Shown here: positions 2,268 through 20,149 of the stretch, in pieces
Position numbering within the stretch: the stretch's first letter is position 1
Layout: every line of letters starts with the position of its first letter
Source: Candidatus Nitrosotenuis sp.
GTDB lineage: Archaea; Thermoproteota; Nitrososphaeria; Nitrososphaerales; Nitrosopumilaceae
NCBI GenBank assembly: GCA_036396715.1
Contig: DASWKH010000061.1
Span: forward strand, 1-29,072
Length of the DNA: 29,072 nt
Reading direction: 5' to 3'
Program-made: the position numbers and the translations under genes
The notes under the pieces: generated by a model
The model's database searches: none
What the model was told of the DNA's origin: nothing
The model's input: the letters and a program-made list of their open reading frames with translations, nothing else

Positions 2268-5200
2268 GTGAAACGCCTAACATTATTGCTACTTTCCTCA
2301 ATTCTCATATTAATTTCTGTAAATGATCAAGCAAATGCTGCAAGTGTTCCAGACCCGCCAACAAATCTTACAGCAACCGCAGTCTCACCAACCCAAATCA
2401 ACCTCTTTTGGTCAGCACCATCATACAATGGTGATTCTGCCATCACAGGCTACAAAATAGAATACAAAATCGGATCCGGCGCTTACACTACCTTGGTAGC
2501 AAATACTGCTAACACCTCTACTACATATTCTCACGTCGGACTTACAACAGACCAGTCATACTCTTATAGAATATCTGCAATTAATGCAATTGGAACAAGC
2601 ACATCTTCTACTGAGGCTTCTGCCACACCAACATCATCATCTTCTGGAACCTTACCTGGCTCTCCAACAAATCTTTCTGCAATACCTGTCTCACCAACCC
2701 AAATCAACCTCTTTTGGTCAGCACCATCAAACAACGGTGGATATCCAATTACGGGCTACAAAATAGAATACCGAGTCGGCTCTGGCTCTTATTCTACTCT
2801 GGTGTCAGACACTGGCAGTACATCTACAACTTTTTCACATACGGGACTGACAACAAACCAAGCTTACCTTTATCGTGTATACACGATTACCTCATTTGGG
2901 ACAAGTGAGGATCCGTCTCCAGAAGCATTTGCACAACCAAAGTCAACATCGACACTAAATACACCGAGTGCTCCAACAAATCTTACAGCAACCGCAGTCT
3001 CACCAACACAAATCAGCTTGTCTTGGACTGTTCCCTCAAACAACGGAGGCGCAGTAATTACAGGATACAAAATCGAAGTCAAATCTGGCTCTGGCTCTTA
3101 CACTACTTTGGTCTCAAACACACAAAGCACAATAACTACGTATTCCCATACTGGACTTACTACTGGAACCACTTACACATACAAGGTTTCCGCAATAAAC
3201 TCAGCTGGTGCTGGCACAGCATCAAATGAATCATCTGCAACTCCAACATCATCCTCATCATCTGGTGTCCCAGGAGCTCCCACAAATCTTAGCGCCATGG
3301 CAGTATCTGGAACTCAAATCAACCTGTCATGGAATGCCCCATCAAACAACGGAGGATATCCAATTACGGGCTACAAAATAGAATACAGGATCGGCTCTGG
3401 CTCTTACACTACTTTGGTCTCAAACACACAAAGCACAACAACTACATATTCACACACAGGTCTGACCTCTGGCCAGCTCTATGTTTATCGCGTCTCTGCA
3501 ATCAACTCTGCTGGCACTGGCAGTCCATCATCAGAATCATCTGCCACACCAACATCATCCTCATCAGCTAGTACTCCGGGCACGCCAACTGGCTTTACAG
3601 CAACAACAGCTTCGCCAACCCAAATCAACCTGTCCTGGAACGCCCCATCAAGCAACGGAGGCTCTGCCATTACGGGATACAAAATCGAGGTAAACAGTGG
3701 CTCTGGCTCTTACACTACTTTGGTCTCAAACACACAAAGCACAACAACATCGTTTTCACATACTGGATTGACAACGGGCACTACATACTATTACCGTGTT
3801 TCAGCGATTAATGCAATTGGAACTGGTGCTTCAACTGAGGCTTCTGCAACACCACAAGAAACAACGACTCCAACACTTACTGCCATGGCTGTCTCACCAA
3901 CATCGATTACTTTGTCATGGGCGCCGCCATCACAAACATACAAGCAAGCAATAACTGGATACAAAATACAGGAAAAAATAGCTACAGATACTTTTGTTAC
4001 TATAGAAGAAAGAACCATCTCGACTGCGACCACTTACTCGATTACTGGTTTGACAACTGGGAACACATACACATACGTAGTTTCAGCCCATTTTAGCTTG
4101 GGCGCAAGTCCAAACTCAAACGAAGCATCTGCAACACCTACAACAACTTCGGCACCACCACCTTCTCAGCCAACAACAAACCCTCCTAGTGCACCAACAA
4201 ACCTTTCCACAACCCCAACTTCGCCCACACAAATCAACCTGTCCTGGAATGCCCCATCAAATAGTGGTGGCTCTCCTATAACCGGATACAAAATCGAGGT
4301 AAGGAGCGGCACTGGCTCTTATACAACATTGACTAGCACACAAAATTCAACTACCAAATACTCCCACACGGGTCTTACGACTGGAACGACCTATTCGTAC
4401 AGAGTCTCCGCAATAAATTCTGTTGGCGTAGGTTCACCATCGTCTGAATCATCTGCCACACCAACTACCACTTCGGTATCGCCACCTTCCCAAACAGCCA
4501 CACCTAGTCCGCCCACACTTGCCGCAACCCTGATTTCTCCAACACAAATCAATTTATCGTGGACCGCAAACACTGGAGACTCTGCCATAACTAGTTACAA
4601 AATAGAATACAAAATTGGTTCCGACCAGTATCGTACTTTAACCAGCAAAGCAACTACTATCACATACTCACATGCTGGATTGTTGGCAAACACATATTCT
4701 TACAGAGTTTATGCAATCAATTCTGCAGGAACGAGTTCTCCATCAAATGAGGTATCTATCAAAACATCAGAACAAACATTGCCACCACTAGAACCGGAGG
4801 AAACAATGTGCGGCCCCGGAACTGTTCTTAACGAGCAAGGAGTTTGTGTTTTACAAGAGTCTGAACCTGAGCCGGAGCAATCAGAACCAAAGGAGACTCA
4901 CATTCCAGGCTTTCCAGATCCCGACAAGGATCCACAATACTATATCAACAGATACAATACAGAATCTACATACAAAGAATGGTTTGACAGAAACTTTCCA
5001 GATCAGACAATCTATGAGGTGGTGGGGGTGCCAGAGCCAGAGCCGCAAGAGAAAAAATGTGGCACAGGTACACATTTGGAAAATGGAATGTGCGTTTTAG
5101 ATGAAACGCAAAATCAATTCCCACTAAGTGGCTGTCTTATTGCTACTGCCACATATGGAACAGAGCTTGCCCCGCAGGTACAGCAACTCAGGGAGATACG

Positions 5201-5513
5201 TGAGCACACCTTACTTTCAAGAAGTTCAGGAACTGCGTTTTTGGGCATGTTCAACTATGTGTATTATTCATTCTCGCCTACGATTGCGGACTGGGAACGA
5301 CAAAATCCAGCCTTCAAAGAGATAATCAAGGTATCAATCACGCCTATGCTTTCGACTTTATCGCTTCTAAACAATGCCAAAATTGATTCAGAGCAAAGTC
5401 TTCTAGGCTATGGGTTGGGAGTAATTCTGCTCAATGTTGGCATGTATTTTGGCATCCCAGCATTGCTTATTTTGTTCATCAGAAATAAAACAAAAACAAA
5501 ATGCAAACCATAA
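2268..5513 (+). CDS. Large secreted surface protein: signal peptide, 8 fibronectin type III repeats, Cys-motif linker, C-terminal CLIATA-type anchor module
   Basis: 1081-aa ORF with a GTG start. The N-terminal signal peptide is MKRLTLLLLSSILILISVNDQANA|A. There are eight ~100-aa units with the FN3 signature (PxxPTNL..SPTQI.LSW..P..NGG..ITGYKIE...G.Y..L.....T.Y.H.GL..G..Y.YRV.A.N..G.G..S). Ser/Thr-rich inter-repeat linkers are present, and the C-terminal hydrophobic helix is followed by a basic tail. Confidence 0.9.
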   Translation: MKRLTLLLLSSILILISVNDQANAASVPDPPTNLTATAVSPTQINLFWSAPSYNGDSAITGYKIEYKIGSGAYTTLVANTANTSTTYSHVGLTTDQSYSYRISAINAIGTSTSSTEASATPTSSSSGTLPGSPTNLSAIPVSPTQINLFWSAPSNNGGYPITGYKIEYRVGSGSYSTLVSDTGSTSTTFSHTGLTTNQAYLYRVYTITSFGTSEDPSPEAFAQPKSTSTLNTPSAPTNLTATAVSPTQISLSWTVPSNNGGAVITGYKIEVKSGSGSYTTLVSNTQSTITTYSHTGLTTGTTYTYKVSAINSAGAGTASNESSATPTSSSSSGVPGAPTNLSAMAVSGTQINLSWNAPSNNGGYPITGYKIEYRIGSGSYTTLVSNTQSTTTTYSHTGLTSGQLYVYRVSAINSAGTGSPSSESSATPTSSSSASTPGTPTGFTATTASPTQINLSWNAPSSNGGSAITGYKIEVNSGSGSYTTLVSNTQSTTTSFSHTGLTTGTTYYYRVSAINAIGTGASTEASATPQETTTPTLTAMAVSPTSITLSWAPPSQTYKQAITGYKIQEKIATDTFVTIEERTISTATTYSITGLTTGNTYTYVVSAHFSLGASPNSNEASATPTTTSAPPPSQPTTNPPSAPTNLSTTPTSPTQINLSWNAPSNSGGSPITGYKIEVRSGTGSYTTLTSTQNSTTKYSHTGLTTGTTYSYRVSAINSVGVGSPSSESSATPTTTSVSPPSQTATPSPPTLAATLISPTQINLSWTANTGDSAITSYKIEYKIGSDQYRTLTSKATTITYSHAGLLANTYSYRVYAINSAGTSSPSNEVSIKTSEQTLPPLEPEETMCGPGTVLNEQGVCVLQESEPEPEQSEPKETHIPGFPDPDKDPQYYINRYNTESTYKEWFDRNFPDQTIYEVVGVPEPEPQEKKCGTGTHLENGMCVLDETQNQFPLSGCLIATATYGTELAPQVQQLREIREHTLLSRSSGTAFLGMFNYVYYSFSPTIADWERQNPAFKEIIKVSITPMLSTLSLLNNAKIDSEQSLLGYGLGVILLNVGMYFGIPALLILFIRNKTKTKCKP
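2349..4766 (+). repeat. Tandem coding repeats: eight FN3 units, 306-bp register for several neighbours
   Basis: Exact DNA repeats are visible. A 42-mer (gtctcaccaacccaaatcaacctcttttggtcagcaccatca) occurs at 2382-2423 and 2688-2729. A 46-mer (ggctctggctcttacactactttggtctcaaacacacaaagcacaa) occurs at 3087-3132, 3393-3438 and 3699-3744. Offsets are 306 bp. Confidence 0.9.
5130..5513 (+). other. C-terminal GCLIATATYG...TM anchor module, copy 1 (aa 955-1081 of the FN3 protein)
   Basis: By hand alignment, about 70 of about 113 positions are identical to the C-terminus of the PstS-like protein at 19778-20149. It ends in the hydrophobic helix LGYGLGVILLNVGMYFGIPALLILFI and the basic tail RNKTKTKCKP. 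Confidence 0.8.
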
Positions 5514-5551: not shown

Positions 5552-5977
5552 ATGATCTCTGTGAAAGTAGTTGGGTTGATTCTTGGAATCTTTCTTGTCT
5601 GGCCATTGCTTACTGGCAGTTTTTTTGCAGAAGCGAAAATCGATGAACCCATGGCAATAACCAGTATGAAAAAGGACATAAAGGAAATTAAAAAACCAAG
5701 TCAAGACAAGTCAGTAAAAATAACCAGCATAACAAAATTCCGGATGCTTGCAATCTTGTATGTAGTTGGAGTTGAGGTTTGTGCGGGAAAAGATAAGCTT
5801 TACTCGCCTGAGCTAAACTTGATCTCAGACAGGGATTCCATAACTGTCAAAGTTGCAGGGCTAATAATGCCCAAAGCCTGCAAAACTGCCGAATTTTTCA
5901 TACGTGCCAATAATCCAAATTCTATCACTGTTAACTTTGCAAATACGGATTATCATTATCCTAAAAGATCGCCGTAA
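5552..5977 (+). CDS. Hypothetical small secreted/membrane-anchored protein (141 aa)
   Basis: ATG-initiated ORF 39 nt after the FN3 gene. N-terminal hydrophobic signal/anchor MISVKVVGLILGIFLVWPLLTGSFFAEA. I recognise no family. Confidence 0.55.
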   Translation: MISVKVVGLILGIFLVWPLLTGSFFAEAKIDEPMAITSMKKDIKEIKKPSQDKSVKITSITKFRMLAILYVVGVEVCAGKDKLYSPELNLISDRDSITVKVAGLIMPKACKTAEFFIRANNPNSITVNFANTDYHYPKRSP

Positions 5978-6423
5978 TGATTACAAATTATTAAAAAACA
6001 CGAGATGCGAAAAAAAGAGTCAGACCTTCTATGAGGTCACTTTGATTTCTTTTTAGCTTTTGACTTCGAAGATTTCTTTGCACTTTTTTTTGCCATACCA
6101 TTAAGTTTTCTGCATGCTATTAAGGATATGCATTGATAATTTTTTTTCCGTAAAATTATTTTTGATATTTTATGTTACCTATGATGTCCGGAGATCTCAG
6201 TAAAATCAGAAAAAGCAGTAGAGCTATCAAACCTTCTACAAAAGATCGGGCCTTACACGATTTTTTTTAACTCTGTATTGGTGCAAGTGAAATGATGAGA
6301 GCATCTTTTGGTTGGATATTCCGGTTTGGAACGAAAAAATTCGGTAAAATTCCAAAGATCCTATATTGTTTTAGGTTTTGTGTTAAGTAGTGACAGGGAA
6401 TCATCACATTATAAATTGGGTAA

Positions 6424-7377
6424 ATGGTTGGGTGGGGTTGCTTGGGCTTTAAAGTCGCTACGAATTTTGTAGTTTTTGCCTCTGTCTTGGTTTTGCTTAG
6501 TCTGGGCTCTTTTGCATCGTACGCCGAAGCTCAAACCTTTGAGATGTACGTCCAAAAGATGCCACCACACTGGGAAAAACAGTTTGGCGATGTCCTAACA
6601 AAGGCAACACAATACTGGGAGGAGAGAATACCCGGCCTGAAATTCGGCGTAGTCAAATTTGTGGATCAGGCCGACTTTGTAGTGGAGTGGGCAAGCCAGT
6701 ATGGGGAAGGAAAGATTGGGTATTACTCTACCAATACGGCAAACGAGTATGGTAAACCAAAGCTTGCAATCTCACTTGGATTTTTCAAAGACAAAAAATG
6801 GAATCTAGTATCTACTGATTATGCATTGGAAATAACAAAACATGAGCTTGGTCATGCAATAGGCCTTCCACACAGTGACGACCCAAACGACATGATGTAT
6901 CCAATAATTGAAAGTTATGAATCATGGCAGCAATCACACGCGGAAAAACCTAAAGCAACATCAAAAACCCCAGAACAAAATCTTCAAGCTTCAACTAAGT
7001 CGACAATTGACTGGCAAAACAAATCACAGAAATACCAAAAACTTGCAAGCGACAAAATTTTCAATCTGGAAACAAAAATCGACACAGCAAAATCATTGCT
7101 TGACTCTACGAACTATGAAAACATGGCAGCCAAAGTAGAGATCGAAAAGGCTTGGACTGCATTTTGGTGGGCCAAAAAATACTATGCCAACGCAGAAAAG
7201 ATGCAGACCGACGGAGGCGCATTCCTCTTACAATCCGAGTACCAAGACTCGTATAAAAAATTCAAATCCTCATACGATTATGCAAAAAAACTGGAAAAGA
7301 AGCTAGCTGATGTAACAAAATACCATAAAAAAGCCTATGGGTTAGAATATGGTAAAAACATTGTCATAGAATCGTAA
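6424..7377 (+). CDS. Secreted zinc metalloprotease, metzincin (matrixin/M10-like) with a Lys-rich helical C-terminal half
   Basis: The extended zinc motif HELGHAIGLPH (nt 6841-6873) is followed by a Met-turn, NDMMYP. An N-terminal signal peptide is present (..FVVFASVLVLLSLGSFASYAEAQ). The true start may be TTG 6442, 24 nt downstream of the TATA-like cattataaattg, rather than ATG 6424. Confidence 0.8.
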   Translation: MVGWGCLGFKVATNFVVFASVLVLLSLGSFASYAEAQTFEMYVQKMPPHWEKQFGDVLTKATQYWEERIPGLKFGVVKFVDQADFVVEWASQYGEGKIGYYSTNTANEYGKPKLAISLGFFKDKKWNLVSTDYALEITKHELGHAIGLPHSDDPNDMMYPIIESYESWQQSHAEKPKATSKTPEQNLQASTKSTIDWQNKSQKYQKLASDKIFNLETKIDTAKSLLDSTNYENMAAKVEIEKAWTAFWWAKKYYANAEKMQTDGGAFLLQSEYQDSYKKFKSSYDYAKKLEKKLADVTKYHKKAYGLEYGKNIVIES

Positions 7378-7385
7378 ATTCCGAA

Positions 7386-7544
7386 ATGAAAAAGGCAGAA
7401 CTTCGTAAGATGGTCGAAGAATATGGAATTCTAAAGTCAAAATCAGACAGTGATGATCAGGTCAATCCCAAAATATTAAAAAAGATTAAGGAAATTGAGC
7501 GCAGGTATTTCCATGAAACTGGACAAGATCTATCTTTATCATAA
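7386..7544 (+). CDS. Candidate 52-aa hydrophilic small protein: MKKAELRKMVEEYGILKSKSDSDDQVNPKILKKIKEIERRYFHETGQDLSLS
   Basis: Hand-translated ATG ORF, below the track cutoff, starting 9 nt after the metalloprotease stop. It fills an otherwise empty 206-nt gap and has charged, helical-looking composition. No homology evidence is available. Confidence 0.35.
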   Translation: MKKAELRKMVEEYGILKSKSDSDDQVNPKILKKIKEIERRYFHETGQDLSLS

Positions 7545-7583
7545 TGTGTCTGGCATCAAGGTTTTTTAGGCAAGCGCCTTTGT

Positions 7584-8117
7584 GTGGGGTGCTTGCTAAC
7601 AAGAAAATCGATTAGTGTAATTATTGGGGGTAGCGTAGCAGCGGCAATCCTGTTGGTGGTTGTGGCCTCTGGGCAACTAGGTATGCAAGAGATCGCCTCA
7701 ACTCAATTAATTGAAGAACAAAACGTTTCCGTCATAGAAAAACAAACACAAGAACAAATGCAGGTATACCGGATCAATACAGAGTGTGAGCTGATTTACG
7801 GCCTTGCATCGGGAAGCTATCCAAACGGGGAAAAATTACCAGCTCTAAAGATTTTGGATCTTGTAGATAAATATCCGGAGTTTGGTCCATGGGAAACAAT
7901 TCTCAGAGACAATCAAACCAGAGCGGAGTTTTTCAAACAATCACTGCCAGAAGACTTTGGCGATGTGCTGGTAAATGCGGTAATGTCTGAATCCTCAATC
8001 AACCCGGAGCTAGACGAAATTGCATCTTTAGTGGCAGATCCACAGGGACGCGCAAAACTACAGCAGGCATTCCAAGAGTTCAACTGCAAGGCTTATTTTG
8101 ATGAAAGAGCAAACTAG
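7584..8117 (+). CDS. Hypothetical membrane-anchored protein (177 aa)
   Basis: GTG-initiated ORF (alternative TTG at 7593). N-terminal hydrophobic anchor SVIIGGSVAAAILLVVVASG followed by a hydrophilic domain. No recognised family. Confidence 0.5.
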   Translation: MGCLLTRKSISVIIGGSVAAAILLVVVASGQLGMQEIASTQLIEEQNVSVIEKQTQEQMQVYRINTECELIYGLASGSYPNGEKLPALKILDLVDKYPEFGPWETILRDNQTRAEFFKQSLPEDFGDVLVNAVMSESSINPELDEIASLVADPQGRAKLQQAFQEFNCKAYFDERAN

Positions 8118-8170
8118 TCCTGAAAATCATCACAACTTTCAAAAACCCAAATTAAATCAGCAACCAGTAA

Positions 8171-8950
8171 ATGCGATCATTACACATCTTGATAATTTCG
8201 ATAATTGCCATAGTTGTCAGCTATTATGTGATTAGTGCATTTGTTCTGCAACAACAGGCAATAAACAAACAATCAGTGTACGTGCACCTACAGCCAGAAT
8301 GGGATAGCTACCCAGGAAATATCGTTTATGACATTACGAATGTCTGGAGTCAAACGGAAAATAGGCAGTTAAACTCCAAGGAAAGGCTAGAAATGTCAAA
8401 AAGCACAAACGTCGATGAACTGCGGTATGTCCATGGAAAATCCTACATTTTAGTCCAGCATGACAACACAAACTGCCATGATTCGTGGGAGCCTCACTAT
8501 GCCAGATTTGGCGCAGATGTAATACGGCACCAAATAGAGTACTTGACTGGCCTGCAGTCAAATCCTGATCCAAACGTCACATTGTACAATCCAATCCCAA
8601 GCAAACAAGACACAACAGAACACGAATCGCAAATAAAACTGGGCTATTCTCAGTTTATCCCAATTTGTACTGAAAAAGATACTACCTCCTTTGATTATTC
8701 GGTTAGAATAAACGATAATTCAGTTGGTTTTGATGTGTATTTTGTTCCATCTATACAAGAACAAGAAAACTATGATCAAAACAACAACAAATTCCAATAT
8801 TATGAGACGGGACAGTGCTCTGGCAAAAACTATGCTAGTTTTTCTGGCACTTGTTATGATGTGAGGAAAGACTCGGGCCTCCTAATCGTAATTCCGGATA
8901 ATCTTAGTCTTCCTCTAACAAAGCTTGATGTCTGGCTGTATGAAAAATAA
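8171..8950 (+). CDS. Membrane-anchored degenerate metzincin paralogue (pseudo-protease) with an extra C-terminal domain
   Basis: N-terminal anchor MRSLHILIISIIAIVVSYYVISAFVL. Internal segments align by eye to the protease at 6424-7377: YVHLQPEWDSYPGNIVYDITNVWS against YVQKMPPHWEKQFGDVLTKATQYWE, and IRHQIEYLTGLQSNPDPNVTLYNPI against TKHELGHAIGLPHSDDPNDMMYPI. The zinc-site residues are replaced (HExxHxxGxxH becomes HQxxYxxGxxS; nt 8528-8560). Confidence 0.6.
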   Translation: MRSLHILIISIIAIVVSYYVISAFVLQQQAINKQSVYVHLQPEWDSYPGNIVYDITNVWSQTENRQLNSKERLEMSKSTNVDELRYVHGKSYILVQHDNTNCHDSWEPHYARFGADVIRHQIEYLTGLQSNPDPNVTLYNPIPSKQDTTEHESQIKLGYSQFIPICTEKDTTSFDYSVRINDNSVGFDVYFVPSIQEQENYDQNNNKFQYYETGQCSGKNYASFSGTCYDVRKDSGLLIVIPDNLSLPLTKLDVWLYEK

Positions 8951-9040
8951 TGTCAAAAAGATGGCTCTAAAAGATATGATGTATAAAAACAAGCGTAAAT
9001 CTGGAAAATGGTTTTAATTTGAGACTAACCAAGTCATTTC

Positions 9041-9502
9041 ATGAAAGCAACATTTGGAGCGGGATGTTTTTGGTGCGTCGAGGACGTCTTTAGAAGAACA
9101 AAAGGCGTAACATCTGTCATGGTTGGATACAGCGGTGGCAGCACAAAAAACCCAACTTATAACGATGTCTGCACCGACCTTACGGGACATGCGGAAGTAG
9201 TTCAAGTAGATTATGACCCAAATGTATTGCCATACGAGGAACTCCTAGACGTATTTTGGAATTCTCACGACCCAACCCAGCTTAACAGGCAAGGACCAGA
9301 CATCGGAACGCAGTACCGCTCAGTCATTTTTTACCATGATTCACAACAAGAGGCAATAGCCAGAAAATCAAAGGAAATACTAGACGTGTCTGGCAAGTTC
9401 GGCAAAAAAATCGTAACTGAGATCCAACCCGCAGCAGAATTCTACAAGGCAGAAGAATACCACCAGCAGTATTATGCAAAATGCGGTATGGCGAAGTACT
9501 AG
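9041..9502 (+). CDS. msrA: Peptide-methionine (S)-S-oxide reductase MsrA
   Basis: 153-aa ORF with the catalytic N-terminal motif GAGCFWCVE and MsrA-typical sequence throughout ([37 protein letters not shown]). Confidence 0.95.
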
Positions 9503-9735
9503 CTAATTTGTCAATGAATAATTCCTTAGTGAGTCTTTTATAGAAAATGCAAGATTGATCAGTTGATAGGTGGGATCCAGTGCCGGAATCTGATGAATTT
9601 TTCGTCAGACCATCTATCTAAAGATTTTATCAATGATGATTTGAAGACGTACAAGATCATGATTTTTGTTTGTTGATATGCTAACAATTATTCAAAATCG
9701 TTTCATCCAGCATTACCAATTTTGGGATTCGATAG

Positions 9736-9750
9736 TTAATTTATTATTTC
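9736..9750 (+). promoter_or_regulatory. TATA-like box (ttaatttattatttc) 22 nt upstream of candidate TTG start 9772
   Basis: AT-rich element at the window-typical distance from a candidate small-ORF start. Confidence 0.25.
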
Positions 9751-9771
9751 AAATCAGGATGCACAAACCTG

Positions 9772-9876
9772 TTGAAGTGCAAGAATTGCGGAAAGGAGTA
9801 CCATAACAGGGCATCAAACTACTGCTCCACCGAATGTGCACTTGAATTCATGGAAAAACACTCAGAACCCTGCTAG
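9772..9876 (+). CDS. Candidate 34-aa zinc-finger peptide (CxxC-x11-CxxxC): (M)KCKNCGKEYHNRASNYCSTECALEFMEKHSEPC
   Basis: Hand-translated ORF in the 410-nt msrA-downstream gap. It has four Cys residues in a C-x2-C...YCS-x2-C arrangement reminiscent of FCS/TRASH-type metal-binding fingers. A non-ATG (TTG) start is inferred from TATA spacing. The ORF is open back to 9736. Confidence 0.3.
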   Translation: MKCKNCGKEYHNRASNYCSTECALEFMEKHSEPC

Positions 9877-9912
9877 AACGATTTATCAAAGGCTTGCTTG
9901 AACTCTTAACTG

Positions 9913-10305
9913 ATGTGTCTTAGGTATGCGTTTTTACTGCTTTTTGTTGTTATGCTACAAAATGTGTACGCCCAGGACTTGCCAGTCAAATTGGCAGACA
10001 GCACCAAAAAAACAGTTGAGGTTGGCAAACAGATACAGATTGCTGCTGATCTAAAAAACAACCAAGACGTCAAGCAGGACTTTGCGTATATTGTCCAGAT
10101 CCAAAATGAAGATGGTGTAATAGTGTCGCTTGCTTGGATTACTGGGACTCTGGCGCCTGCACAATCTTTTACACCTGCACTTTCTTGGATACCAAACGAG
10201 GAGGGCAGGTATGAGGCCACAATCTTTGTCTGGGAAAGCATCAATAACCCTTCTGCTCTGTCACCAACACTTTCTTTGGGAATTGATGTGAATCAATTTG
10301 CTTAA
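9913..10305 (+). CDS. Hypothetical small secreted protein (130 aa)
   Basis: Signal peptide MCLRYAFLLLFVVMLQNVYA|QD. The mature part has alternating beta-strand-like composition. A TATA-like gatttatcaa ends 24 nt upstream of the ATG. Confidence 0.6.
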   Translation: MCLRYAFLLLFVVMLQNVYAQDLPVKLADSTKKTVEVGKQIQIAADLKNNQDVKQDFAYIVQIQNEDGVIVSLAWITGTLAPAQSFTPALSWIPNEEGRYEATIFVWESINNPSALSPTLSLGIDVNQFA

Positions 10306-15468: not shown

Positions 15469-16707
15469 CTACCACTCGCTAAAGCTCGTGGCTTCCTGCT
15501 TCCTTGATCTCGATATGATCTCCACAGGCGTAACTTCCCGCAATTCCTGCGGTAATTTGATATTGAAAATATCTACTAATCCATTTTTCAAAATATTGAT
15601 GCTTGCGTTATGGTCCCTGTCCAGCACCAAGCCGCACACATCGCACTTATGCGTTCGAACTGCAAGGGTTTTTGGCACCATGTTGCTGCATCTAGAACAA
15701 TTTATGGTAGTGTTTCTTGCCGGAACCTCGACTACCATTGTTTTATAGTACAGCATATTTGTGAAGGTTCCCCATCCAGAATCCAAGATATTTCTAGCCA
15801 GTTTGTGGTTTTTTACCATATTCAGTTTTTGTAGCCTTTCCAGAAATACCACGTCATATTTTTTTGCATATTGTGTTGAGATTTTGTGCAGAAAATCCTT
15901 TCTTTTGTTTTTGATTCTTTCATGAATTATCTGGTAGAATCTGGTTGCCTTCTTTCTGTTTTGTGAACCTTTTTGCCTTCTTGATATCTTTCTCTGGATT
16001 CTGCGCAATGGTTTTAGCATTTTGGAATAGTTCAGAGGATTTGGAGTCACAAATCCATCAGAATCGTATACGAAATTTTTGATGCCTACATCTATTCCAA
16101 CTGATTTTCGAAGTGATATTTTTGGAATTACTGCATCAATGTCTACTGTGATACAGGCATGCCATCTGCCTGACTTTGATTTTGATACTGTGATCTGTTT
16201 GATGATGTGATTTTCTGGAATGGTTCGGTGTTCAACGATCTTGATTTTGCCTATTTTTGACAAATGTAAAAAATCGTCTTTGATTTCAAATCCTGACTGG
16301 TTGTATGTGAAGGTACGGTATTCTAAGAATCTGGCAAATTTGAGTGAACCTGTCTTGTGGCCGTTTTTTCTTAGCTGGACTAGTGCTTTTTGTGCGCCGT
16401 CGACCTGTGCTGATATCGTCTGCAGCATCTTGGAGTGATGTGAATACAACCACGATTCGGATTCTTTTAGTTCTGTCAGAAAATAGTTGAGATCGTTTCG
16501 GCTCTGGAATCCCTCGGAGTGGATTTTTTCCACCATAGTATTATAGACCCACCTGCAGGTGCCAAGTGTATGATGTAGTTGTTTTATTTGGGTATGATTT
16601 GGATACAGACGAAACTTGAAGGTCTTTTGCAATAATTGTTGTATGGTTTTTTGTCTAAAAACAGTTCTGATCCGATCCAAGCTGAGCTGTGGTGTACTCG
16701 CTTTCAT
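15469..16707 (-). CDS. tnpB: TnpB (IS200/IS605 OrfB) RNA-guided endonuclease-like protein, catalytic residues intact
   Basis: 412-aa ORF. The N-terminal FKFRLYPN...Q...L....G..RWVYN is present. RuvC-I is GIDVGIKNF (D206) and RuvC-II is VVFLERL (E290). The zinc finger is CSRC-x14-CDVC and RuvC-III is DRDHNASINI (D365). Confidence 0.9.
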   Translation of the reverse strand: MKASTPQLSLDRIRTVFRQKTIQQLLQKTFKFRLYPNHTQIKQLHHTLGTCRWVYNTMVEKIHSEGFQSRNDLNYFLTELKESESWLYSHHSKMLQTISAQVDGAQKALVQLRKNGHKTGSLKFARFLEYRTFTYNQSGFEIKDDFLHLSKIGKIKIVEHRTIPENHIIKQITVSKSKSGRWHACITVDIDAVIPKISLRKSVGIDVGIKNFVYDSDGFVTPNPLNYSKMLKPLRRIQRKISRRQKGSQNRKKATRFYQIIHERIKNKRKDFLHKISTQYAKKYDVVFLERLQKLNMVKNHKLARNILDSGWGTFTNMLYYKTMVVEVPARNTTINCSRCSNMVPKTLAVRTHKCDVCGLVLDRDHNASINILKNGLVDIFNIKLPQELREVTPVEIISRSRKQEATSFSEW

Positions 16708-18652: not shown

Positions 18653-20149
18653 ATGAAAATCTTGGCAGCAACACTAATGACAGTTTTAATTGCATCTGTT
18701 TTTTCTCAAGTTGCAATCGCACAAAACCAGTTTACGATTACTGGAGCAGGTGCGACATTTCCGTTTCCACTACTCGATTTGTGGCGTGTAAAATACAACG
18801 AGGCCCACCCAAACATAAACATGAATTACCAATCTATTGGTAGCGGTGGCGGAGTAAAACAACATGTTGAATTAACAGTCAATTTTGCAGCCTCCGATGC
18901 GCCACTAACTGACGGTGAAATGGAACTTGCACCAGACTCGTTAACTATTCCAGAAGCAATAGGAGGAATCACTGTAACATACAATATACCAGAAATTCCA
19001 CAAAGTGGACTAAAACTTACAGGCCAACAGGTTGCAGATATTTTTCAGGGTAAAATAACAAAATGGAATGATGCACAAATTCAGCAAACCAACCCAGACC
19101 TACCTCTACCAGATGAAAGTATTCTTGTGGCACACCGCTCAGACGGTTCTGGTACCACATACGCCTTTACTGAATACCTCACTATGGTGAGTCAAGATTG
19201 GGATGATCAAGTTGGCTTTGGCAAAAGTGTTCCTTGGCCGGCAGGAGTTGGGGCAGCTGGAAATGAAGGCGTTGCCACCACAGTAAGAACATCCCCATAC
19301 TCGATAGGATATGTGGAGTTGGCATATGCATTCCAAAATAACATGGCAGTTGCATTCGTTCAAAACGCCGATGGGACTGCATTTGTAGAGCCTACATTTG
19401 ATACTTTGTCTGCTGCTGCCGCCGGTGCTGCAGCAGGATTGCCTGCAGCCCACGAACATTGGCAAGAAGTCAGCATTAACAACTCGCCCGGACCAAATTC
19501 ATATCCAATTGTAAGTTTCACATACATACTCTTACACCAAAACTTGGAGGCTGCTACACCAAGTAAGGCACATGCACAAGAAACAGTCAATCTTATAAAA
19601 TGGATGATAACTGAAGGTCAGAAATATAATCCTGAATTACTGTATGTTCCAATCCCAGCTGAAGTAACACAACTCGGTTTGGATGGCTTGGACAGAGTCA
19701 CATACAATGGCCAACCACTTTTTGCAGAGGCAGCAATGGAACAACCGCAAGATACACAGGATGCTGAAGGTGGTGGATGCTTAATTGCAACAGCGGCGTA
19801 TGGCTCTGAGATGGCATCACAGGTGCAACTACTTAGAGAAGTTCGAGACAACGTACTGTTCAGCACGACTTCTGGAGCAAACTTCATGACTAGCTTTAAC
19901 TCGATCTACTACTCATTTAGCCCAACTGTTGCAGACTGGGAACGAAACAACCCGGCATTCAAAGAAGTAGTAAAGACTGCAATCACTCCAATGCTTTCGA
20001 CTCTGTCAATACTCAACTATGTAGATATTGACTCTGAGCAAGAAATGCTTGGTTATGGAGTGGGAATAATCTTGCTTAACTTGGGAATGTACTTTGTAGC
20101 CCCAGCAATTGTAATTGTGAAGCTACGATCAAAATTTAATTCAAAATAA
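18653..20149 (+). CDS. pstS: Phosphate-binding protein PstS fused to a C-terminal CLIATA-type anchor module
   Basis: Signal peptide MKILAATLMTVLIASVFSQVAIA|Q. PstS motifs are present: GAGATFPFPL, YQSIGSGGGVKQ, AASDAPLT, HRSDGSGTT. After an acidic/Gly linker, the last ~123 aa are homologous to the C-terminus of the FN3 protein. Confidence 0.85.
   Translation: MKILAATLMTVLIASVFSQVAIAQNQFTITGAGATFPFPLLDLWRVKYNEAHPNINMNYQSIGSGGGVKQHVELTVNFAASDAPLTDGEMELAPDSLTIPEAIGGITVTYNIPEIPQSGLKLTGQQVADIFQGKITKWNDAQIQQTNPDLPLPDESILVAHRSDGSGTTYAFTEYLTMVSQDWDDQVGFGKSVPWPAGVGAAGNEGVATTVRTSPYSIGYVELAYAFQNNMAVAFVQNADGTAFVEPTFDTLSAAAAGAAAGLPAAHEHWQEVSINNSPGPNSYPIVSFTYILLHQNLEAATPSKAHAQETVNLIKWMITEGQKYNPELLYVPIPAEVTQLGLDGLDRVTYNGQPLFAEAAMEQPQDTQDAEGGGCLIATAAYGSEMASQVQLLREVRDNVLFSTTSGANFMTSFNSIYYSFSPTVADWERNNPAFKEVVKTAITPMLSTLSILNYVDIDSEQEMLGYGVGIILLNLGMYFVAPAIVIVKLRSKFNSK
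19778..20149 (+). other. C-terminal GCLIATAAYG...TM anchor module, copy 2 (aa 376-498 of the PstS protein)
   Basis: CLIATAAYGSEMASQVQLLREVRDN...YYSFSPTVADWERNNPAFKEVVKTAITPMLSTLSILN...LGYGVGIILLNLGMYFVAPAIVIV + KLRSKFNSK. The protein-level match to 5130-5513 is strong, while the DNA has diverged at many synonymous sites. Confidence 0.8.

Follow-up and report, generated by a model that had tools for sequence, protein, structure and literature searches.

Ammonia-oxidising archaea drive marine and soil nitrification, and their energy metabolism relies on copper and nutrient-binding proteins kept in the space between membrane and S-layer, although to my knowledge no mechanism for retaining these proteins in such archaea has been described. 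Here I consider a protein module of about 125 amino acids (aa) that closes two different proteins encoded in a 29,072-nucleotide stretch of Candidatus Nitrosotenuis sp. (GenBank assembly GCA_036396715.1, contig DASWKH010000061.1, positions 1 to 29,072; "the window" below means this whole stretch), and which a sequence-only reading of the DNA had singled out as a candidate for surface anchoring or sorting. The window is ordinary chromosome, with genes for EF-2, MsrA, an aldehyde dehydrogenase, a TnpB-like protein, a PurP-like protein, TatC and purQ/purL. Both open reading frames (ORFs) said to carry the module are present, at 2268-5513 (+, 1081 aa) and 18653-20149 (+, 498 aa), and their C-termini translate to just the residues given in that reading; a tblastn search together with a six-frame motif scan finds exactly two copies, here called A and B, and both run as far as the stop codon. 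Their parts are as follows.

2268..5513, + strand: gene of the 8xFN3 protein, which carries copy A (1081 aa; Pfam fn3 in eight stretches, E 2e-109)
4809..5096, + strand: pre-module adaptor of the copy A gene, two Cys hairpins flanking a KDPQYY...TIYEVVGV motif
4809-4850, + strand: adaptor Cys hairpin 1, CGPGTVLNEQGVCV
4926-5030, + strand: adaptor KDPQYY...TIYEVVGV motif, between the hairpins
5058-5096, + strand: adaptor Cys hairpin 2, CGTGTHLENGMCV
5097..5132, + strand: copy A linker, LDETQNQFPLSG, last residue Gly
5133..5348, + strand: copy A CFI box, module residues 1-72, CLIATATYG... from the invariant Cys956
5349..5402, + strand: copy A post-box stretch, LSTLSLLNNAKIDSEQSL, module residues 73-90, specific to the archaeal version
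5403..5480, + strand: copy A membrane helix, LGYGLGVILLNVGMYFGIPALLILFI, by hydropathy
5481..5513, + strand: copy A basic tail RNKTKTKCKP and stop codon, net charge +5
18653..20149, + strand: gene of the PstS phosphate-binding protein, which carries copy B (498 aa; TIGR00975)
19673..19777, + strand: copy B linker, aa 341-375, ending AEGGG
19778..19993, + strand: copy B CFI box, module residues 1-72, from Cys376 (NF041770 match)
19994..20047, + strand: copy B post-box stretch, LSTLSILNYVDIDSEQEM
20048..20119, + strand: copy B membrane helix, LGYGVGIILLNLGMYFVAPAIVIV, with G94, I98, N101, Y105 and P109 near-invariant on one face
20120..20149, + strand: copy B basic tail KLRSKFNSK and stop codon, net charge +4
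Example peptide for coverage of the GGG-C junction and the box: EVRDNVLFSTTSGANFMTSFNSIYYSFSPTVADWER

The two copies and their family

Upstream of the module the two proteins are unrelated, as had been claimed: one consists of eight fn3 stretches, and the other is a PBP_like_2/PstS protein that matches the PstS equivalog model TIGR00975 with 351.6 bits against a cutoff of 205 (aa 29-340 of its 498 aa) and has a 100% identical counterpart at NCBI, likewise named PstS, in a Candidatus Nitrosotenuis sp. metagenome-assembled genome. By hydropathy, each protein has a signal-like N-terminal stretch (aa 1-22 in the 8xFN3 protein, aa 2-24 in PstS) and just one further hydrophobic helix, at the C-terminus. 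BLASTP aligns the two tails with 79 of 124 residues identical, 102 of 124 similar and no gaps (E 2e-63), the same proportion as the earlier hand count of about 70 in 113, and the gapless alignment spans the final 126 aa of the 8xFN3 protein and, in PstS, the final 123; the module itself begins with the Cys codon, at nt 5133 in copy A (rather than nt 5130) and nt 19778 in copy B. The two DNA copies share 63% identity and use different codons at 46 of 78 identical residues, Nei-Gojobori counting gives a saturated pS of 0.80 with a dN of 0.29, and each copy is nearer to modules of other genomes (up to 84-100% identity) than to its partner in the window (64%). With synonymous sites saturated, the sequence comparison confirms the view that the two copies are old paralogs under purifying selection.

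The module also has a name. NCBIfam model NF041770, CFI_box_CTERM, is a 69-position domain model with a curated cutoff of 40 bits, and copy A exceeds this with 68.8 bits in the whole protein (aa 956-1027) and 73.5 bits as an isolated module, copy B with 74.3 bits (aa 376-447) and 77.7 bits; the family signature C-(F/L)-I-A-T-A-A-(Y/F)-G opens both, as CLIATATYG in A and CLIATAAYG in B. NF041770 was the sole match when the isolated modules were scanned against NCBIfam at E<=1, a Pfam scan gave no model matching the module, and a profile of the family found no homologue among PDB sequences. The sequence-only reading had pointed both to a resemblance to the CFI box and to the lack of a function for that class, and on both counts it was right: relatives are already called "CFI-box-CTERM domain-containing protein" by NCBI, I found no publication on the CFI-box family or the IATAAYG motif, and neither the N. 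maritimus S-layer paper nor an archaeal AMO structure preprint contained anything related to the module. Judged by its sequence, therefore, the module is a member of a catalogued, named but functionally uncharacterised family, and a very widespread one (18407 representatives at 50% identity clustering, see below) that is without literature, structure or assigned function.

The family is not restricted to archaea. A query modelled on a bacterial consensus brought back 131 real proteins, the NCBI-named members among them coming from Thermodesulfobacteriota, Nitrospiraceae, Gammaproteobacteria, Betaproteobacteria, Omnitrophota, Desulfobacteraceae, Desulfuromonadaceae and Pyrinomonadaceae, and all 88 sequences of a mixed archaeal and bacterial alignment match NF041770. 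Across these 88 members C, A-T-A, R, Y and P are invariant and I, A, G, L-R, D, G, Y, S, A and P nearly so; archaeal and bacterial members share the opening signature, the LR.xRD and YYxxSP motifs and the C-terminal position. Bacterial members come in two forms, one in which Gly run, Cys and box are followed by a membrane helix of generic type and an Arg tail (97-110 aa, counted from the Cys), and one that ends about 75-80 aa past the Cys without a membrane helix and, in some cases, without a signal peptide (junctions such as KKDG-CFIATAAYG and NSGGG-CFIATAAYG). The archaeal form, in contrast, has a four-residue insertion, a longer stretch between box and helix that has no counterpart among the bacterial members, and a helix that is nearly invariant rather than generic. 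Five small bacterial proteins of about 105-125 aa, P0354 (L001:6001-6345), P0353, P0344, P0327 and P0371 (L002:1774-2100), consist of a hydrophilic N-terminus without signal peptide, G-C and the CFI box, with no membrane helix, so the box is not limited to exported, membrane-anchored proteins; the genes around them were uninformative, and the small ORFs that follow bacterial box-only genes do not obviously supply the missing helix and basic tail.

The archaeal form, its distribution and its cargo

The archaeal form was delimited by aligning 37 relatives and by profiling conservation across 246 thaumarchaeal modules. The linker is variable and rich in Glu, Thr, Ser, Gln and Pro (entropy 3.35 bits) until the three-residue Gly run before the Cys (0.74 bits), which is followed by the CFI box (residues 1-72, 0.63 bits), the post-box stretch (73-90, 0.80 bits), the membrane helix (91-114, 0.62 bits, on par with the box) and the basic tail (115 to the end, 2.38 bits), with conservation falling abruptly at both module edges over the 246 modules. 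The Arg/Lys-rich tails noted earlier are thus present, but they lie outside the conserved block, which ends with the helix. For a passive anchor, a membrane helix as well conserved as the domain before it is unusual. When counted over 258 proteins, the module-opening Cys is invariant (258/258) and the triplet ahead of it is GGG in 191, and since the cargo parts mostly have even numbers of Cys (none in 41 proteins, two in 39, four in 19), the module Cys is the odd, unpaired one; in PstS, Cys376 is the sole Cys of the whole protein.

The structure prediction that had been suggested for the module was run with AlphaFold on alignment A3 (88 sequences, with bacterial members added) and reached pLDDT 84.7 and pTM 0.57, a first run on a shallow, thaumarchaeal-only alignment having been discarded at pLDDT 57. 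The predicted fold is all-helical, with a short helix over LIATAA, then three longer helices and a long helix covering the membrane segment and tail. The archaeal version continues for about 50 conserved residues past the end of the NF041770 model (near module residue 72). What is new here is this extended archaeal form, composed of GGG, Cys, a helical box of about 72 aa, an 18-aa stretch, a helix and a basic tail, together with how large and how varied its cargo set is, the exchange of anchors on PstS described below, and a confident helical model without a fold match.

The module is anything but confined to the two genes of the window, as a profile search beyond the source genome made plain: among 1.84 billion cluster representatives (50% identity clusters) there were 18407 matches at E<=1e-3, 4424 at E<=1e-10 and 1505 at E<=1e-30, and in the best 150 the module always stands at the extreme C-terminus of proteins of 154-1003 aa. 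All 102 thaumarchaeal representatives match NF041770, and their cargoes include cupredoxins of amicyanin, plastocyanin and halocyanin types, cyclophilin peptidyl-prolyl isomerases, matrixin-like and DUF4344 peptidases, pentapeptide and TPR proteins, beta-propellers, MG2, HYR and Ig domains and one choice-of-anchor D domain, most of the 102 cargo proteins having no Pfam domain. A species scan with one genome each gave at least 591 confirmed copies, and the complete genome of Ca. Nitrosotenuis chungbukensis alone has at least four, scattered. In ammonia-oxidising archaea a single conserved C-terminal cassette seems to be shared by hundreds of different exported proteins; the sequence-only reading, which had suggested that the module may define the cargo set of an undescribed thaumarchaeal surface-display system, was right about a large and diverse exported cargo set, but went too far in that the module, taken as a sequence family, is neither undescribed nor limited to thaumarchaea: a curated NCBIfam model exists and matches archaeal and bacterial members alike.

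Some odd matches deserve mention here. The best 80 loci of the species scan are all Nitrososphaerota save one contig binned as "Candidatus Uhrbacteria" (L072, JAAZYG010000042.1, 3084 bp), whose module is 75% identical to copy B and which is probably a mis-binned thaumarchaeal contig, given that the 79 other top loci are all Nitrososphaerota. Eight contigs from the IMG/VR viral collection (L087-L094) have weak CFI boxes with 30-42% identity over the matched segment. Two short thaumarchaeal ORFs that seemed to be modules without cargo (P0088 and P0062) are apparently what is left of larger genes that were disrupted or mis-called, and were set aside.

Of the 120 closest homologues of PstS, 95 have the CFI module, 25 have instead an unrelated C-terminal domain of about 38 aa and none has both. 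The alternative domain occurs in one or two copies within the last 40-90 aa or so (example KIPDWVRNIFKFYGDGQIGDDDLINGLQFLIKEGIIKLQ), follows roughly the pattern (I/V)PxW(I/V)(K/R)...(F/W)(Y/W)...DxD(F/L)..G(I/L)Q(F/Y)LI..GII, lacks a membrane helix and is covered by neither Pfam nor NCBIfam. When the cargo parts are placed on a neighbour-joining tree, proteins of the alternative type fall into three clades that lie within the CFI type, and 68 of 93 CFI-type cargoes are farther from the window cargo than is the nearest alternative-type cargo, from which it follows that the C-terminal device has been swapped on a conserved PstS cargo. In the alternative domain, ammonia-oxidising archaea may have a second, as yet undescribed means of retaining proteins in the envelope; the homologues that carry it are P0465-P0467, P0472-P0475, P0478-P0481, P0483-P0488, P0490, P0491, P0493, P0494 and P0496, and further P0407, P0410, P0414 and P0418.

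A proposed membrane tether and its rivals

The reading that I favour, with a probability of roughly 0.6, is that the module is a C-terminal membrane tether for Sec-exported proteins which also presents a specific docking or self-association surface. The N-terminal signal peptide would carry the cargo across the membrane, the C-terminal helix would halt transfer and remain in the membrane with its Lys/Arg tail in the cytoplasm, and the uncleaved cargo would be held at the outer membrane face under the S-layer by the flexible, Glu/Thr/Ser/Pro-rich, Gly-ended linker. I infer this orientation from the charges of the tails and the acidic ectodomains of both window proteins, which under the positive-inside rule would place cargo and box outside and the tail inside. 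By analogy, the tether would serve PstS, cupredoxins, cyclophilins and proteases as the lipoprotein anchor does in bacteria. PstS must stay by its membrane permease and cupredoxins by membrane redox complexes. The helical domain of about 90 residues and the helix face G94-I98-N101-Y105-P109 are probably the association surface, for self-association or for docking onto a common membrane partner, and the unpaired invariant Cys may belong to that surface or be a site of disulfide formation or modification. These five positions are each conserved at 93% or more (with sequence weighting and the more divergent members included), and, as the top five of the helix by conservation, they share an 80-degree arc, as only 0.45% of five-position choices do; a conserved helical ectodomain next to a one-sided Gly/Asn/Tyr/Pro helix face suggests a specific protein-protein surface. 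The cassette-like spread over diverse cargoes, the sharp edges of conservation and the exchange for another C-terminal domain on PstS also count in favour of the tether reading.

There is a precedent for such a tether. Crenarchaeal binding proteins of the oligopeptide-binding class in Sulfolobus and Aeropyrum have a signal peptide and, behind a Ser/Thr low-complexity linker, a membrane segment at the C-terminus, which keeps the binding protein close to its ABC transporter (PMC3387779). Their layout of signal peptide (there of the signal-peptidase-I type), binding fold, linker and membrane segment is that of PstS here, but their anchors are described as a Ser/Thr stretch plus helix, with no membrane-adjacent conserved domain or invariant Cys described. 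The bacterial lipoprotein anchor, which keeps PstS-like proteins on the outer face and also has an invariant Cys, is alike by functional analogy only: the lipobox is N-terminal and processed by Lgt and Lsp, whereas the module Cys lies 376 or 956 residues in and follows GGG rather than L-x-x, and the pattern [LVI][ASTVI][GAS]C was not found at the end of the N-terminal signal peptide. The suggestion that LSGC at the copy A junction is lipobox-like was consequently dropped, as LSG is peculiar to the 8xFN3 protein and its Cys does not end a signal peptide.

Several points weigh against the tether. A plain tether needs neither the conserved 90-residue ectodomain, nor the invariant Cys, nor the near-invariant helix, and the conservation of all three would equally fit recognition by a processing enzyme; the membrane helix is rich in Gly, Asn and Pro, as the helices of intramembrane protease substrates often are; a conservation-moment test over the whole membrane helix was not significant (p about 0.1), and the top five positions were chosen after seeing the data; and some bacterial members have neither signal peptide nor membrane helix, so that the role of the box is more than anchoring alone.

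The foremost rival takes the module for a cleaved sorting signal, read by a dedicated enzyme similar to an archaeosortase, rhombosortase or myxosortase, that would be cut either close to the GGG-Cys junction or at the helix's GYG edge, after which the cargo would be released or passed to a lipid or another envelope component, possibly via the invariant Cys. I consider this unlikely, even though the module follows the logic of known signals: PGF-CTERM, PEF-CTERM, PEP-CTERM, MYXO-CTERM and CGP-CTERM likewise combine a signature, a membrane helix and a basic cluster at the C-terminus of many unrelated exported proteins, with several copies per genome, and some classes of C-terminal sorting signals, among which MYXO-CTERM and CGP-CTERM are grouped here, have an invariant Cys. 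It speaks for the same rival that the Cys follows GGG and is unpaired, that the helix is conserved as strongly as the box, and that one cargo has a choice-of-anchor D domain, a class that NCBI defines by its pairing with alternative C-terminal sorting signals. However, those signals measure about 25-35 aa and have no folded domain, while the module, with some 125 aa and a confidently predicted helical fold, is about four times as long as any known sortase-type signal, which upholds the earlier remark that it far exceeds the PGF- and PEF-CTERM signals. The PGF- and PEF-CTERM hidden Markov models do not match it, nor do other such CTERM models (NCBIfam scan, E<=1). Archaeosortase signals consist of a C-terminal signature, a membrane helix and a basic cluster (PMC3387779), and the module does have a helix and a basic cluster at the extreme C-terminus, as would any stop-transfer anchor, but the residues ahead of its helix read DSEQ(E/S)(M/L)LGYG, not PGF or PEF. 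A partner enzyme failed to appear as well: the window annotation has no sortase-like gene beside either copy and no archaeosortase within the 29-kb contig, ORF clustering over 80 thaumarchaeal loci returned only orthologous-locus neighbours and no candidate, and five bacterial loci had neither a recurring neighbour nor a candidate. Finally, the box-only bacterial proteins that lack signal peptide and helix could not reach an enzyme on the outer face.

A broader and likewise doubtful proposal is that the CFI box is the handle of an undiscovered sorting or covalent-attachment system of bacteria and archaea, with the Cys as the site of the chemistry (lipidation, a thioester or an intermolecular link), and that ammonia oxidisers expanded it, with a co-evolved helix, into their main route of pseudo-periplasmic retention for cupredoxins, PstS and foldases. 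It is compatible with the invariant and unpaired Cys, with a helix conserved as strongly as the domain, with several polar residues that are invariant or nearly so in bacteria and archaea alike, and with the want of any fold or literature match.

It is very improbable that the module is a self-processing domain, in which an N-to-S acyl shift at Gly-Cys, as at Hedgehog Gly-Cys-Phe and intein N-termini, would produce a thioester that water or an envelope nucleophile resolves, to release the cargo or attach it covalently. The Hedgehog/intein (Hint) domain does share a conserved G-C-(F/L) junction opening a C-terminal domain, this junction is kept even in the short bacterial box-only proteins, and Cys, Thr, Arg, Asp, Tyr-Tyr and Ser are at least 90% conserved from bacteria to archaea, a number of conserved polar residues that one would sooner expect in an active or binding site than in a passive helix bundle. 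But the module is predicted to be all-helical where Hint is beta-rich, it matches no Hint or any other Pfam model, it lacks the conserved Thr-x-x-His block after an N-terminal Cys and indeed any conserved His (copy B has none, copy A one), and I know of no autoproteolytic domain with a small all-helical fold. Least credible of all is a mere passive membrane tail that is constrained in hydrophobicity alone and alike in the two proteins through recent duplication or gene conversion: the module does end in a helix and basic tail like any stop-transfer anchor, but the saturated synonymous sites (pS 0.80, dN 0.29), the closer similarity of each copy to other genomes' modules (up to 84-100% against 64%), the recognisable box in bacteria and the abrupt drop of conservation on both sides exclude it as far as sequence evidence can.

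An answer to whether the module is a plain tether, a device for docking or a sorting signal that is processed would close a gap in the biology of the archaeal envelope, and would provide a sequence rule for predicting the surface proteome of ammonia-oxidising archaea and possibly a display tag for them; should processing or Cys modification prove true, the finding would be considerably more interesting.

Neighbouring genes and the adaptor

A few observations concern the surroundings of the module genes. A radical-SAM gene of about 510 aa lies two genes downstream of an MG2-type cargo on the opposite strand (L098:3815-5341 (-) and L099:2831-4366 (-)), and a matching ORF of about 520 aa is found in 14 of the 80 related loci; this seems to reflect a conserved gene order at a single locus and no tie to the module. 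In the window pstS stands as an orphan, with no pstC, pstA, pstB or phoU domains in the neighbouring ORFs scanned in the window. A TnpB / IS605 OrfB-type gene at 15469-16707 (-), with OrfB_IS605, Cas12f1-like TNB and HTH domains, sits between the aldehyde dehydrogenase gene and an ORF with a bifunctional-nuclease domain. Downstream of the 8xFN3 gene, positions 5552-10305 contain several small ORFs in succession (5552-5977, 7584-8117, 8171-8950 and 9913-10305), which begin with signal- or anchor-like hydrophobic stretches and match no family, and in the same region a matrixin-like peptidase (6424-7377) is without the CFI module, which three matrixin-domain relatives elsewhere carry.

The adaptor of the 8xFN3 protein, whose motif in its fuller form reads KDPQYY..RY..WF..NFP..TIY, stands between the FN3 array and the module and has no annotation. 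Among the 78 module-bearing ORFs of the 80 related loci, 9 have this whole adaptor tail ahead of their module. A Cys hairpin (CGxGTx5-7C) within the 45 aa that precede the module is present in 37 of 192 relatives, 33 of which have it 7-11 residues ahead of the module.

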